Assembly (NCBI GenBank): GCA_963844535.1
Contig: CAWJOP010000008.1
Location: 196,801-260,800 of the forward strand
From: an uncultured Gammaproteobacteria bacterium
GTDB lineage: Bacteria; Pseudomonadota; Gammaproteobacteria; CAWJOP01
DNA: 64,000 nucleotides
Direction: 5' to 3'
Shown here: in pieces, positions 46,321 through 57,947 of the stretch
Numbering within the stretch: position 1 is the stretch's first letter
Layout: every line of letters starts with the position of its first letter
Notes under the pieces: model-generated
Databases searched by the model: none
Told to the model about the DNA's origin: nothing
The model's input: only the letters and a program-made list of their open reading frames with translations
Program-made: the position numbers and the translations under genes

Positions 46321-46342
46321 CTGTGGCCGAACCTGGAATCGA
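46321..46342 (-). other. 22-bp remnant of a tRNA-Phe 3' end (T-arm plus acceptor); putative island attachment-site repeat
   Basis: TGTGGCCGAACCTGGAATCGAA matches 19/22 to the longer tRNA-Phe 3' fragment at 57903..57947 (GGTGGCCAGACCTGGAATCGAA). Confidence 0.4.
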
Positions 46343-46611
46343 ATTTAATGAGCGTTAAAAACAATCTGATGAAATGGTCTTTTGCTTGCTGATTAACCGG
46401 ACAAAAAACCGGACATTTTTTCTCAAAAATATTTCTTAATTTTTCAAAAAACCCTGATAAAACAAGCCAATGAATACTAAAAAACCGGGCAAAAAAATAG
46501 GACATTTTATCGGTCATAGATAGAAACGACCTCGACGCACCTACCGCCTGGTCGTGTGCAGAAACCAATGCCAATTGTTCCTGCCTCAAGCGGTGTAAAT
46601 TCAAAAAATTA

Positions 46612-46662
46612 TATTTTATGTGCAATTAATTCCTATAAAAGGAACTAATTGCACATAAAATA
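46612..46662 (-). terminator. rho-independent terminator downstream of the adhesin gene
   Basis: ATGTGCAATTAATTCCT-ATAAA-AGGAACTAATTGCACAT is a 17-bp stem with one mismatch, followed on the minus strand by a T-rich run. Confidence 0.5.
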
Positions 46663-46700
46663 TAATTAATCCATGCAAATATTATAAATAAGTGCAATCT

Positions 46701-48845
46701 TCAAAAATCATCCCGCCTAATGCTATTTTCAGAAAATAAATTAACACTAATGCCATCAGCAGGTGATGCGGCGAACAAACCAAATCCATCGCCGTTACCA
46801 CCAGTTAATGTTACTTGGTTAAATACAATGGAATCTAATTTAATAAAACTTGGATGATTAGCATTCCGCTGCCCTAGGAAAAGCCCCCTTGAGTTCTCGC
46901 TGGAGTTTTCTAAAACGATTTGATTGCTATTTATTTTTTTCCCAACGATGTTGCCACCATCAGAAATAATATCAATACCCACACTGAGATTATTATTTAC
47001 ATTATTCATATCGATGTTTATAACATTATTAATAATATTGCCGATGTTGATAGTGGAGTCTGATTCACTCACAAAATCAATGCCTGTGGCGATACGGGTA
47101 AGTTCATCGATTGAATCACTACCAGTGATTTTAATTTCATTACCCGAAATTTTAGCAACACTCAAATTTCCAGATAAATTGGCGTCGAAATGCATGCCAA
47201 TCGAACTGGTGTCGATGCTATTTTCTTTAATATTTTCTACACCCATTGTTCCGCCAGTTACCAAGAAGTCCAACCCTGGAGATTTCTTATCGTTTGTAGA
47301 AACAGAATTCATACTAATATTTTTAACTGTCATACTTCCATGGGAAGCACTAAAAAACATACCTGAGCTGTGAGCGCTTTGTGTTTCGATCATATTGTCT
47401 GAAATTTCACCTACCTTAAGTTGCCCACCATTGTTAGCGCTAAAAGATAACGCGCTGCCTGAATTAATATTAAAAATACTATCGGTAATATGATCAATGG
47501 TAGCGGTATTGTTTTTACCACTTACTTCAATTTTCAGATTACCATTGGTAAGTATGCGTTCAAGATTGAGCGTACCCATACTGCCATCCTCAGACCGATG
47601 AAAAATTGCTAGTGGTGCAGTTTTATCAACTGAAAGGTTTAAATCACGAATGGTGATGTTAGAGTTTTCTCCTTTAATTTTTAATAACCCATGATCTCCA
47701 GGGTTGTTGATAGGTTTACCGATTAATTCACCGCCTTGAGTAACTGTAATATTAATAATTTTTTTATCTCGAACAAATTGATAAGTATTGCCAGTTAGAT
47801 AAAGGTTGCGATTAATCATTGCATCACCAACGCCTTTAATTTGCCCATGTACAGCAATGACATCCGCTTTATCATCAGCAAGCGCTTGATTAAAATTACC
47901 GAGCGTATCAACGTCACGAATATTCGCCGGTAAATTAACGTTTTGTGCATTGCTTTGCGTGATTACATCCACGTCACGGCGAATGCGATCAACCATATGT
48001 CGTTCAACACCTTGTAGATTTAAATTAGCGTTGCCATTACCCCAACTCATTCCTATTGTTAAGCCGCCATAATAATTTATGCCCCTAACTGCATCGTTTG
48101 TCACTAATCCTTCTACAGCTACGCGGTCAAATAATCCTAAGATTTTATGATTAGGTTCGGCATAAAACACGTATTCAGCTCTGGCTTTGGGCCCTGCTAA
48201 TGTTTTTGTATTTGCCTCATGAAAATAATAACCGCCCCCATAAACAGTTAAACCACCTATTAATGTGCGCCCTATTTCAGCGTCTGCTCCTGGTAAGGCG
48301 CTTTCAGTAGTTTCAGTAAAACCAATATTACGGTAACCACCATTTTCGCGGAAGGAAAAAGTTTTTAAATCAGGCGCAGAATATTGATGACAACCATAAG
48401 GACAATACATGTTAGCTCCTAAAAACCAGTCCTGTTGCCAAGCTTCTATTCCAACATTGATCTGATTAAAAGAATCACCCGTAGTAGTTTTTAAATGATC
48501 AATTCCCCCATATAAACCTATTAAATTGGTATGATTAGGATTTAAACGCCGATACCCTAACGCTAAGCTACCTTCCCATGGCGTGCCAGATTTATCGAGT
48601 AATCGTATACTTGAAAAAAGTAATTGATCAGAGGTTGCAAAAAGAGGCGATAGCAACGTATTTTCGCCTGCTAAGTGCGGGCCATTTTTAAAGGCGTATC
48701 CGCCTAAATACCATTGAGGATAATAAGTAATGGAATTAATCTCAAAAGCATTTTGGTTTTTTTGCTGCGCATGAGCACTCATGCTGATTAAGAGTAAGGT
48801 AAGGTAGCTTATTAGCTGCAACAAGAATTTTTTTAGTTGATACAT
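46701..48845 (-). CDS. putative outer-membrane adhesin: N-terminal beta-barrel-like domain plus a C-terminal parallel beta-helix repeat domain (inverse-autotransporter-like)
   Basis: 714 aa with a signal peptide. The first ~300 aa are rich in Gly/aromatic alternating beta-strand segments (LALGYRRL, IGLYGGIDHL, INVGIEAWQQDWFLGANMY). The rest has pectin-lyase-like repeats (NxIxxTGSDS.., ISDGGNIVGKKINSNQIVLENSSEN). Confidence 0.45.
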   Translation of the reverse strand: MYQLKKFLLQLISYLTLLLISMSAHAQQKNQNAFEINSITYYPQWYLGGYAFKNGPHLAGENTLLSPLFATSDQLLFSSIRLLDKSGTPWEGSLALGYRRLNPNHTNLIGLYGGIDHLKTTTGDSFNQINVGIEAWQQDWFLGANMYCPYGCHQYSAPDLKTFSFRENGGYRNIGFTETTESALPGADAEIGRTLIGGLTVYGGGYYFHEANTKTLAGPKARAEYVFYAEPNHKILGLFDRVAVEGLVTNDAVRGINYYGGLTIGMSWGNGNANLNLQGVERHMVDRIRRDVDVITQSNAQNVNLPANIRDVDTLGNFNQALADDKADVIAVHGQIKGVGDAMINRNLYLTGNTYQFVRDKKIINITVTQGGELIGKPINNPGDHGLLKIKGENSNITIRDLNLSVDKTAPLAIFHRSEDGSMGTLNLERILTNGNLKIEVSGKNNTATIDHITDSIFNINSGSALSFSANNGGQLKVGEISDNMIETQSAHSSGMFFSASHGSMTVKNISMNSVSTNDKKSPGLDFLVTGGTMGVENIKENSIDTSSIGMHFDANLSGNLSVAKISGNEIKITGSDSIDELTRIATGIDFVSESDSTINIGNIINNVINIDMNNVNNNLSVGIDIISDGGNIVGKKINSNQIVLENSSENSRGLFLGQRNANHPSFIKLDSIVFNQVTLTGGNGDGFGLFAASPADGISVNLFSENSIRRDDF

Positions 48846-57282: not shown

Positions 57283-57289
57283 GATTGAA

Positions 57290-57901
57290 GACCTACTTAA
57301 AGAACGTAGGCTCCAGTTATATCATACTTTATATAAAAATTCTCACATGCTCAGGGTAGGATTTTATAAAAAAGAGCTGCCAGCAAGGGAGATTTTGTTT
57401 TTCCGGCAAACAATGAATCAGGTCACGTTGTTAAACCACGCAAGGCTATGTTGAAAGCGCTATTTTAAGCATTAAAAAAGAAACCACCAAACTACCTGCA
57501 TTTAATTTCTTACAACAACAAGTAAAATTCGATGACTTTATACAAGAGTATAATTATGAACGACCTCATCAAGCATTAAACATGAAATGTCCTGCAGAAT
57601 TTTATATGTCTTCAACTCGGCAATATCAAGGTATTACTGATATAGAATATCCTTTCCATGAAAAAATCGTTATGATTACCGAATGCGGTAGAATTTGTTT
57701 GAAGGGAAAAAAATTCATTTTAATACCGTATTCTCTGGACAAAATGTAGGAATCAAAGAAGTTGATGACGCTATTTGGCTTATGACTTTTATGAATTATG
57801 ATTTAGGATACTTTGATGAACAAACGTGTAGATTTGATCCTTTGGATAATCCCTTCGGTTCAAAACTGTTATCTATGTCTTCGGTACAGACCGTTTTTTG
57901 A
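57290..57901 (+). mobile_element. degenerate IS481-family element, 3' part (transposase C-terminal integrase-core region with frameshifts)
   Basis: My translation, in shifting frames, gives ..FQQQVKFDDFIQEYNYERPHQALNMKCPAEFY.. and ..VGIKEVDDAIWLMTFMNYDLGYFDEQTCRFDPLDNPFGSK... This resembles the DDE transposase C-terminus of the IS481 family. The ORFs at 57110..57454 and 57695..57901 are fragments. Confidence 0.55.
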
Positions 57902-57902
57902 T

Positions 57903-57947
57903 GGTGGCCAGACCTGGAATCGAACCAGGGACACAAGGATTTTCAGG
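57903..57947 (-). other. tRNA-Phe(GAA) 3' fragment (anticodon loop to CCA end, 45 nt); putative attL/attR of an integrated element
   Basis: The reverse complement, CTGAAAATCCTTGTGTCCCTGGTTCGATTCCAGGTCTGGCCACCA, aligns with the E. coli tRNA-Phe 3' half (UUGAAAAUCCCCGUGUCCUUGGUUCGAUUCCGAGUCCGGGCACCA). The 5' half, with D-arm and acceptor, is absent, so this is not a functional tRNA. Confidence 0.65.

Follow-up and report, generated by a model that had tools for sequence, protein, structure and literature searches.

A small tRNA-Phe island with candidate defence cargo, and probable remnants of older islands beside it, in an uncultured gammaproteobacterium

Results

An orphan tRNA-Phe(GAA) 3' half at 57.9 kb

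The right end of the window, by which we mean the whole 64-kb stretch of DNA analysed, carries a small tRNA-proximal island (island 1) and, at its far end, a tRNA fragment. The features of this part are:

57902–57946, minus strand: orphan tRNA-Phe(GAA) 3' half (tRNA positions 32–76, anticodon loop to CCA), 45/45 identical with intact genes
57947–57972: distal arm of island 1, adjoining the fragment; diverged copy at 50728–50752
58320–59348, plus strand: YhcG/DUF1016 PD-(D/E)xK nuclease, island 1 cargo (Pfam; PADLOC candidate defence family PDC-S02, 3e-143)
59638–59774: copy (91%) of a DUF3800 gene 3' end and terminator region, matching 44513–44649
59841–60428, minus strand: 195-aa ORF, island 1 cargo, with no significant family match in Pfam, PADLOC or NCBIfam
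60446–60694, minus strand: DUF6429 small protein (Pfam, 1.9e-30)
60713–61573, minus strand: nucleotidyltransferase-HEPN (NTase-HEPN) fusion, PDC-S09-like (Pfam; PADLOC)
61749–63254, minus strand: 501-aa protein with matches to NERD (0.0039, below the Pfam threshold) and NCBIfam GapS1 (3.7e-14, below the family cut-off)
63341–63604, plus strand: small ORF upstream of the integrase gene
63613–64000, plus strand: tyrosine integrase, first 129 codons, reading toward the expected minus-strand tRNA-Phe (PF00589 in homologs)

Read as RNA, the fragment at 57902–57946 is CTGAAAATCCTTGTGTCCCTGGTTCGATTCCAGGTCTGGCCACCA. We found the exact 45-mer at 23 metagenome loci, in 14 of which it forms the 3' half of an intact tRNA-Phe(GAA) gene and continues with 'tcctttgctctacc...', whereas in the window it is followed by 'gctccaacaac...', which is unlike the tRNA. 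Because this continuation differs from the tRNA-Phe(GAA) 5' half, the 45-mer is an orphan. The earlier note had described such a 45-nt 3' half without a 5' half, placing it at 57903–57947 and thus one base too far to the right; comparison with the 14 intact genes also showed that it is not part of a full tRNA on a different register. ARAGORN and Rfam detected no intact tRNA in the 64-kb window, and the Rfam scan did not report the half-tRNA at E ≤ 10, so we relied on sequence comparison for its identification. No match to the 45-mer was obtained in shuffled sequence (0 matches) or in viral contigs. At three loci (L020, L024 and L029), orphan 45-mers join left and right flanks in differing combinations, a pattern to be expected of a recombination junction. 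Another locus (L016) contains two 45-mers 4848 nt apart, the first being directly followed by a YhcG gene 69% identical to that of island 1 and equivalent in position. The minus-strand orientation of 57902–57946 is the one expected from the integrase geometry in homologs, and the sequence constitutes the attR core of the tRNA-proximal island, i.e., its displaced fragment.

An origin of the orphan fragment and the junctions described below from contigs mis-joined at repeats is extremely improbable. Several repeats of 130–230 nt are present in the region and Logan contigs break there, but separately assembled Logan contigs of run ERR10755945 (possibly the reads of the source itself) cover 36.8–51.4 kb and 60.7–63.6 kb at 99.98–100% identity and span the junctions at 44490, 46.3 kb and 50.7 kb, and orphan 45-mers occur in comparable context at nine other loci.

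The integrase and the extent of island 1

The integrase gene starts at 63613, as had been proposed before, and ends outside the window at about 64686. We recovered the full source protein (P0258, 357 aa) with a chimeric query consisting of the window N-terminus and the C-terminus of the homolog L004; its first 129 aa are exactly those encoded in the window, and the gene is intact. The earlier designation of the integrase as P4-type had to be abandoned, since Pfam detects no DUF4102 arm-binding domain in the window N-terminus or in the full-length homologs L004 and L018. Both homologs contain PF00589, a weak SAM-like match is present in the window N-terminus and L004 and is missing in L018, and NCBIfam yields Xer-like matches, all of them sub-threshold. 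The Arg-I (NTGCR), His (LGH) and Tyr (THY) motifs are present, and the HxxR box reads HDLKH, its Lys aligning with the Arg of PDB entries 4a8e and 5c6k. Across 120 family members, this position is occupied by Lys in 111 and by Arg in 7, and most members of the clade have HDLKH instead of HxLRH. More than 6,000 database relatives were found at E ≤ 1e-60, mostly from uncultured Gammaproteobacteria; the representative-genome contigs do not include the source species, their best match being 78% identical.

In the homologs, a convergent tRNA gene follows 21–50 nt after the integrase stop. Loci L004 to L008 carry tRNA genes for Met, Asn, Lys, Thr and Thr, respectively, in this arrangement, and in L018 and L033, whose DNA is similar to 63545–63852 of the window, the integrase gene adjoins an intact tRNA-Phe gene with the same convergent geometry. 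In L007, a homologous island of 4.9 kb lies between repeats of 46/48 nt that extend from the anticodon loop to the CCA end. Such precise repeats and the regenerated tRNAs in relatives suggest that the integrase is active. By analogy, an intact minus-strand tRNA-Phe(GAA) would be expected about 20–115 nt past the integrase stop, at ~64.7–64.9 kb. The C-terminal 33 aa encoded by the small ORF at 63341–63604 resemble those of a small ORF upstream of the L018 integrase gene (52% identity, E = 2e-11), and the product is possibly an excisionase or regulator.

The oriented orphan 3' half, the geometry of the intact integrase gene and the repeats of the homologs together define the stretch from 57,947 to ~64.8 kb as a small tRNA-Phe island of ~6.9 kb with candidate defence cargo. 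This supports the integration at tRNA-Phe that had been postulated for the DNA from 57.9 kb to beyond 64 kb, and Pfam also bears out the nuclease (YhcG) and NTase (NTase-HEPN) cargo.

Comparison of the 46.3 kb region with a relative

Further to the left, the following features surround a second tRNA-like fragment:

44490–46352: strain-specific 1.86 kb segment, absent from the relative L039; pieces recur at 50.05 kb and 59.64 kb
44602–45357, minus strand: DUF3800 gene in this segment (PADLOC PDC-M04A)
45518–46243, plus strand: DUF4760 gene in this segment
46323–46343, minus strand: tRNA-Phe-like 3' end from the T loop to the discriminator base (19/21 identical), right edge of the 1.86 kb segment
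46353–46640, plus strand: Fic gene remnant (promoter, ~24 codons and 3' flank); intact (409 aa) in L039

The sequence at 46323–46343 is GTGGCCGAACCTGGAATCGAA. A 22-bp copy of the tRNA-Phe 3' end had been noted here at 46321–46342; a tRNA-Phe-like 3' end is indeed present, but it is weaker than described: two neighbouring bases of the acceptor strand are mismatched, and the end reads CAG in place of CCA. Because it had 0 matches in shuffled sequences, the fragment cannot be attributed to chance. A further candidate tRNA fragment at the Maf/YgaP boundary (43383) was rejected, as its 15/22 identities are at chance level and it lies inside a conserved YgaP-like gene.

The only informative comparison for an empty site was provided by L039/L040, a member of the Maf 90%-identity cluster. 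More distant Maf homologs (65–69% identity; L013 and L014) showed neither conserved synteny nor a tRNA-Phe. L039 is 95–98% identical to the window at the nucleotide level over 37.3–44.49 kb; it lacks 44490–46352, including the 46.3 kb fragment, and contains the DNA of 46353–46640 directly to the right of it. These breaks place the start of the variable zone at 44.49 kb. The proposed comparison with related genomes thus located breaks at 44490 and 46352 and revealed the deleted Fic gene, and 46321 is not the outer boundary. The GC content is 34.5% over 43.6–64 kb vs. 38.5% upstream, the drop beginning near 41–43.5 kb, so the suggested check of base composition shows no step at 46.3 kb either.

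The earlier note had regarded the fragment as the outer boundary of the islands. If it represented the original chromosomal tRNA end, two discrete islands would have been inserted in succession, at 46,344–57,901 and from 57,947 to 64.8 kb, with backbone to the left of 46,321. Such a history would agree with the non-random nature and common strand of both fragments, with a 46.3 kb match that sets in precisely at the T loop, which is the second of the common crossover regions of tRNA-integrating islands (PMC4383910), and with a synteny break at most 10 nt away from the fragment. We nevertheless consider it unlikely, because L039 lacks the supposed backbone of 44490–46352 and retains the supposed island DNA of 46353–46640, because the DUF3800 and terminator sequence of the supposed backbone is repeated inside both islands, and because the left segment has no integrase and no GC step at its edge and is split by a third scar at 50.7 kb. 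Since L039 keeps DNA on the supposed island side, the 46.3 kb fragment may have arrived with a translocated segment instead of marking an integration in place.

Scars and remnants between 46.7 and 57.9 kb

The DNA between the two tRNA fragments contains:

46701–48845, minus strand: 714-aa protein with a threshold-level inverse-autotransporter (IAT_beta) match (Pfam 22.4 bits, cut-off 22.3)
49075–49710, minus strand: PLD/Nuc-like protein (Pfam PLDc_2; PADLOC DrmC-like match)
50048–50209, minus strand: internal DUF3800 gene fragment (aa 102–155), from repeat comparison
50716–50752, minus strand: degenerate scar of an att junction, composed of 12 nt from the anticodon stem-loop of tRNA-Phe and a ~25 nt arm resembling the distal arm of island 1
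50778–52814, minus strand: fusion of a dCache sensor and a class III nucleotidyl cyclase (Pfam)
52833–53111, minus strand: 5' end of an NTase-HEPN gene and upstream remnant, 84% identical to 61507–61730 in island 1
53983–54390, minus strand: GFA-family protein (Pfam)
54765–55200, minus strand: disrupted C-terminal fragment of an AbiEi antitoxin (Pfam, 1.7e-15)
55265–55430, plus strand: another IS481 3'-end remnant; its right terminus is complete, and no tRNA sequence adjoins it
55555–57282, minus strand: 575-aa F-box-containing protein (Pfam 20.8 bits, cut-off 20.5), between the two IS481 3'-end remnants
57415–57901, plus strand: frameshifted C-terminal remnant of an IS481-family transposase (rve_3); 9 nt separate the end of the element from the tRNA fragment

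Several of the previous cargo assignments are backed by Pfam (PLDc_2, dCache with cyclase and GFA here, YhcG and NTase-HEPN in island 1), while the adhesin (IAT_beta) and F-box calls are only at threshold. The 'IS fragments' mentioned before proved to be the two transposase 3' remnants. The one at 57415–57901 is 70% identical at the nucleotide level to intact IS copies in L023 and L034, which score 215.6 bits with NCBIfam transpos_IS481 (just below the cut-off of 224), match LZ_Tnp_IS481 and rve_3 in Pfam and have terminal inverted repeats of 20–44 nt. Based on these matches, we assign the intact copies to the IS481 family, of which the window holds only 3' remnants.

A single island between the two tRNA fragments, as had been suggested for 46.3–57.9 kb, is not compatible with the lack of an integrase, the third scar at 50716–50752 and the interruptions by IS481 sequences. 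Using seven integrases of the family as tblastn queries, we found only 63613–63999 in the window and no second integrase or integrase remnant, and six-frame Pfam searches of 52.8–55.6 kb and 57.28–57.9 kb returned rve_3 and AbiEi and no integrase. An integrase-like stretch noticed by eye at 57370–57466 was unsupported and therefore rejected. The scar at 50.7 kb is 26/31 identical to 57935–57965, plus 5, the best of 200 simulated sequences reaching 23, and it is followed in collinear order by the NTase-HEPN remnant at 52.8–53.1 kb.

The whole region from 44.5 to 57.9 kb could also be hypervariable chromosome beside a single island at 57.9–64.8 kb, shaped by IS481 elements, deletions and gene swaps, with the scars as incidental relics, e.g., partial copies of island 1 or of a different tRNA. 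The lack of an integrase in this region, the IS remnants on either side of the F-box gene, the shortness of both scars and the resemblance of the indels relative to L039 (1.86 kb segment, Fic, LysE) to ordinary flux would all fit. This explanation is improbable in our view, because both scars exceed chance and are oriented like the 45-mer, because the 50.7 kb scar copies a junction of tRNA end and island arm and is continued by collinear island sequence, and because integrases of this family are commonly accompanied by orphan fragments and multi-copy arrays (L002, L016, L020/L024/L029). To the left of 57.9 kb, the interpretation in the earlier note is only partly supported, and we regard 44.5–57.9 kb as a mosaic in which eroded pieces of islands are mixed with IS481 fragments and cargo rearranged by recombination.

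Discussion

We propose, with a probability of roughly 0.7, that mobile islands piled up downstream of a minus-strand tRNA-Phe(GAA) gene, island 1 being the youngest and 44.49–57.9 kb an older residue. The integrase of island 1 would have recombined the chromosomal gene with a copy of the tRNA 3' half carried by the island, through a crossover in the anticodon loop that regenerated the tRNA and pushed the previous 45-nt 3' half to the far end of the island at 57902–57946. The DNA at 44.49–57.9 kb would consist of immobile leftovers from earlier insertions of related islands that have lost their integrases. In the presumed order of events, an IS481-family element would then have invaded beside the tRNA end, genes in the older layers (Fic, AbiEi, DUF3800, NTase-HEPN) would have been deleted or truncated, and islands would have swapped segments by recombination, leaving the partial att scars at 50716–50752 and 46323–46343; any current mobility is likewise presumptive. 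The segments common to the islands could also reflect duplication within the genome and not independent acquisitions.

The Islander survey found attP centred on the anticodon loop in 2083 of 3919 islands and listed 125 tandem arrays of at least two islands (Hudson, Lau & Williams 2015, PMC4383910), with sublocation classes that it takes from Williams 2002. Like the tRNA/tmRNA islands of this survey, island 1 has a tRNA-proximal integrase gene inside the island (from 63613; P0258, 357 aa), a directly oriented piece of the tDNA 3' part displaced to the far end (57902–57946) and an attP that would be centred on the anticodon loop. Unlike in the Islander arrays, only the proximal island fits, the intact tDNA is expected outside the window, and the older layers have scars without an integrase. 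Of the serial integrations at tRNA-Phe envisaged in the earlier note, the tRNA-proximal one therefore stands, whereas the older 'islands' fall outside the definition of a tandem array (PMC4383910) for want of a second integrase. As second tDNA fragments they offer 46323–46343 (19/21), bordering a segment that L039 lacks, and 50716–50752 (26/31 plus 5), with only 12 nt of tRNA.

Islands with P4-type integrases are found at phe tRNA genes of Enterobacteriaceae, namely the pheV/pheU pathogenicity islands. These share with our locus a phe isoacceptor as repeated hot spot, mosaic decaying cargo and IS elements. In contrast to them, the integrase described here lacks DUF4102 and belongs to a distinct clade of uncultured Gammaproteobacteria, and the cargo consists of candidate defence genes and a eukaryote-like F-box protein instead of classical virulence operons. 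The locus resembles defence islands in its matches to PDC-S02 (YhcG), PDC-S09-like (NTase-HEPN) and PDC-M04A (DUF3800), a weak match to GapS1, and AbiEi and Fic remnants nearby. It differs from them in that these matches are to candidate families or below family thresholds, and no complete, experimentally validated system was identified.

The pile-up at tRNA-Phe opens no new biological question and represents a textbook mechanism, tRNA integration with later decay, in a poorly known AT-rich gammaproteobacterium known via metagenome relatives. Its practical value lies in annotation, i.e., in island boundaries, pseudogenes and IS remnants, and it provides precise ends for one small candidate-defence island, documents the erosion of an array down to att scars and marks tRNA-Phe as a recurrent hot spot in related genomes. 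F-box and Fic genes of eukaryote-like type may be a hint that the organism lives intracellularly. For the integrase clade with its unusual HxxK active-site box, the loci provide a naturally occurring collection of att sites together with their targets. We found no published description of this anticodon-loop-targeting clade, and we tentatively consider a wider possibility, namely that its members, most of which have a Lys where the otherwise strictly conserved RKHRH pentad has its second catalytic Arg, are evidently active, switch among six or more tRNA targets (Phe, Met, Asn, Lys, Thr-CGT and Thr-TGT) and build multi-generation arrays of defence islands. If this is true, the catalytic centre of the HxxK clade would be a naturally occurring variant that merits biochemical study.

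An orphan tRNA-Phe 3' half and its integrase

Searches of the whole window with ARAGORN and Rfam revealed no intact tRNA gene. On the minus strand at 57902-57946, the window contains the 45-nt sequence CTGAAAATCCTTGTGTCCCTGGTTCGATTCCAGGTCTGGCCACCA, which represents tRNA positions 32-76 and comprises the anticodon loop (GAA), the 3' strand of the anticodon stem, the variable loop, the T arm, the 3' strand of the acceptor stem, the discriminator A and the CCA end. This agrees with the earlier note, which had described a tRNA-Phe(GAA) 3' half without a 5' half on this strand, except that its coordinates (57903-57947) lay one base too far to the right. 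Scanning JGI metagenomes, we found the exact 45-mer at 23 loci, at 14 of which it forms the 3' half of an intact tRNA-Phe(GAA) gene. In these 14 genes, the 45-mer is continued by 'tcctttgctctacc[a/g]actgagctatctggcc', whereas the window continues with 'gctccaacaac...'. Because of this difference, we regard the 45-mer of the window as an orphan tRNA-Phe 3' half; the differing continuation also rules out that it is part of a full tRNA on another register.

As previously proposed, an integrase gene starts at 63613 and runs off the window. Using a chimera of the 129 residues encoded in the window and the C-terminus of a homolog as query, we recovered the full-length protein (P0258) from the protein database. 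It consists of 357 amino acids, and residues 1-129 are identical to the window, indicating that the gene is intact and expected to end at about 64686. Its designation as a P4-type integrase found no support: the full-length homologs scanned (L004 and L018) contain the Phage_integrase catalytic domain (PF00589) and no DUF4102 arm-binding domain in Pfam, and NCBIfam returned only Xer-like matches, all of them sub-threshold. Judged by its sequence, P0258 is best classified as a tyrosine integrase of a different clade abundant in uncultured Gammaproteobacteria. One of the homologs derives from a MAG labelled Coxiellaceae.

The usual HxLRH box of tyrosine recombinases reads HDLKH in P0258 (window 63613-64000) and in the integrases of four compared loci (L004, L005, L007 and L018). 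Among the 120 nearest members of the family, 111 have Lys and 7 have Arg at this place; in alignments with the solved recombinases 4a8e and 5c6k, the Lys falls on their second catalytic Arg. A survey of tyrosine recombinases (PMC8138268) found the first Arg and the first His to be the only deviating positions of an otherwise strictly preserved RKHRH pentad; the exchange of the second Arg for Lys in the family of the window's integrase is absent from its list.

At five genome loci, the stop codon of a homologous integrase is followed after about 50 nt by a convergent tRNA gene (Met, Asn, Lys, Thr-CGT and Thr-TGT). In L018, the integrase is intact (385 aa) and its gene is separated by 21 nt from a complete tRNA-Phe, with ubiG as the housekeeping flank; the corresponding integrase copy of L033 is disrupted. 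The 4.9-kb island of L007 ends in a direct repeat (46/48 nt) of the tRNA-Thr 3' half which reaches the anticodon loop. Two 45-mers are spaced 4848 nt apart in L016, where a YhcG homolog (69% nucleotide identity) directly follows the first one, as in the window. This geometry and the repeat length tie the 45-nt orphan to the integrase at 63613, and a minus-strand tRNA-Phe is predicted at roughly 64.7-64.9 kb, some 20-115 nt beyond the integrase stop. In the Islander database, a regenerated tDNA and a displaced fragment constitute the island ends, and attP is centred on the anticodon in 2083 of 3919 islands, more than in any other class (PMC4383910). The proposed integration mode at tRNA-Phe is the standard, already known one.

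Cargo of the tRNA-proximal island (57,947 to ~64.8 kb)
YhcG/DUF1016 PD-(D/E)xK nuclease (PADLOC PDC-S02, 3e-143)
195-aa ORF, no assigned function
DUF6429 protein
NTase-HEPN fusion, PDC-S09-like
501-aa protein resembling NERD (weakly) and GapS1 (sub-threshold)
Small ORF preceding the integrase gene; in L018, the ORF at the equivalent place has a similar C-terminus

The GC content of this island is 33.6%, compared to 38.5% for 1-43.56 kb. We consider it well supported and very probably integrated at tRNA-Phe.

The left boundary

The sequence GTGGCCGAACCTGGAATCGAA at 46323-46343 matches the tRNA-Phe 3' end in 19 of 21 bases. The match starts precisely with the T loop. Two neighbouring bases of the acceptor strand are mismatched, CCA is replaced by CAG, and shuffled sequence yielded no matches as good. 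What had been reported as a 22-bp copy of the 3' end at 46321-46342 is thus a non-random tRNA-like fragment, shifted in position and neither exact nor provided with CCA.

For comparison, a close relative (L039/L040) was found among the sequences clustering with the Maf protein at 90% identity. The L039 lineage is represented in JGI 3300009787 and SRR6256964. Over 37.3-44.49 kb, L039 and the window are 95-98% identical, but identity ends at 44489, within the last codons of an AadA-like NTase gene, and restarts only at 46353. Therefore, L039 lacks 44490-46352, a segment holding DUF3800, DUF4760 and, at its right edge, the 21-nt tRNA-like fragment. The stretches 46353-46524 and 46534-46640 are common to both; in L039, their counterparts flank an intact 409-aa Fic gene (region L039:7297-8755), of which the window retains a remnant (46353-46640) made up of the start codon, some 24 codons and a 3' flank with a hairpin. 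Repeated CCGGACA motifs occur just upstream.

According to this comparison, the DNA to the right of the fragment, formerly assigned to an island, is shared with L039, while that to the left, formerly assigned to the backbone, is strain-specific and partly repeated inside the islands. The fragment lies within 10 nt of the synteny break. GC content showed no step at 46.3 kb. Together with the L039 alignment, this argues against 46321 as an array boundary: of the tandem array of serial integrations suggested earlier, the tRNA-Phe island from 57.9 kb onward stands, while the two-island model bounded at 46321 is not supported. From the alignment, the fragment fits a recombination scar rather than an array delimiter, and the variable zone, measured against the closest genome at hand, begins at 44,490.

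Run ERR10755945 may represent the source's own reads; Logan contigs from its independent assembly reproduce 36,845-44,617, 44,613-51,386 and 60,743-63,632 at 99.98-100% identity, indicating that the junctions are not assembly artefacts.

Some further differences and repeats were observed. A LysE-family gene (39635-40255) is absent from L039, and the GFO_IDH_MocA gene at 41243-41611 codes for 122 aa, compared to 315 aa in L039, and is probably a pseudogene in the window because of this truncation. MITE-like elements at 18074-18406 and 33657-34286 occur in several direct or inverted copies (81-91% identical), and a pair of 105-nt arms (33709-33813 and 34181-34285; 99% complementary) encloses 367 nt.

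Relics in the older region (44.5-57.9 kb)

Features to the left of the 45-mer
55265-55430: second IS481 3'-end remnant
55555-57282, minus strand: 575-aa F-box protein (threshold-level F-box and weak beta-propeller matches)
~57415-57901, directly beside the 45-mer: IS481-family transposase, C-terminal part, frameshifted

No second integrase was detected by tblastn with seven family members, which matched only 63613-63999, and six-frame Pfam searches of 52.8-55.6 kb and 57.28-57.9 kb gave no integrase remnant; their sole matches were a piece of transposase (rve_3) and a fragment of AbiEi. The latter is the disrupted C-terminal part of an AbiEi antitoxin (54765-55200, minus strand; Pfam 1.7e-15) with no recognisable AbiEii partner, adjoined by a 67-aa ORF with no assigned function (54403-54606). 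The IS481 remnant at 57415-57901 shows 70% nucleotide identity to intact 396-aa copies (L023:668-1890 and L034:2454-3741), and the F-box gene, a eukaryote-like gene in an AT-rich gammaproteobacterium, lies between the two IS481 3'-end remnants, which are in direct orientation. The element ends 9 nt from a tRNA-Phe 3' end in the window (orphan), L023 (intact tRNA) and L034 (orphan). It may prefer the tRNA-proximal spacer as a target or, alternatively, may have travelled in the attP-proximal arm of an island.

Repeat analysis matched 50716-50746 to 57935-57965 in 26 of 31 bases, with 5 more after a 1-nt gap, while the best match among 200 simulated sequences was 23. The match recreates the point at which the tRNA fragment, with its anticodon-loop end, meets the distal arm of the tRNA-proximal island. 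Collinear with the arm, 52887-53111 is 84% identical to 61507-61730, the 5' end of the NTase-HEPN gene and its upstream region. The intact DUF3800 gene at 44602-45357 has matching pieces in two other places, 50048-50209 and 59638-59774.

We propose that 50.73-57.9 kb was spanned by one or more older islands akin to the tRNA-proximal one, that the integrase end would have been destroyed by the IS and by deletions, and that modules would have moved between the island layers by recombination. Multi-generation accretion and decay of islands at tRNA-Phe is our favoured reading of the region, with a probability of about 70%. Islander lists 125 tandem arrays (PMC4383910), and the older layers would not count as array members under its rule because they are without integrases. 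Island accretion at tRNA genes is already well known, and the window probably represents a further instance.

Orphan 45-mers elsewhere show exchanged flanks: those of L020 (7894) and L029 (3093) have the left flank in common and differ in the right one, and those of L020 and L024 (557) have the right flank in common and differ in the left one. Locus L002 contains two orphan tRNA-Met 3' halves (11194 and 18229) beside a truncated integrase that belongs to the family of the window's integrase. Other organisms carry arrays made by the same kind of recombination.
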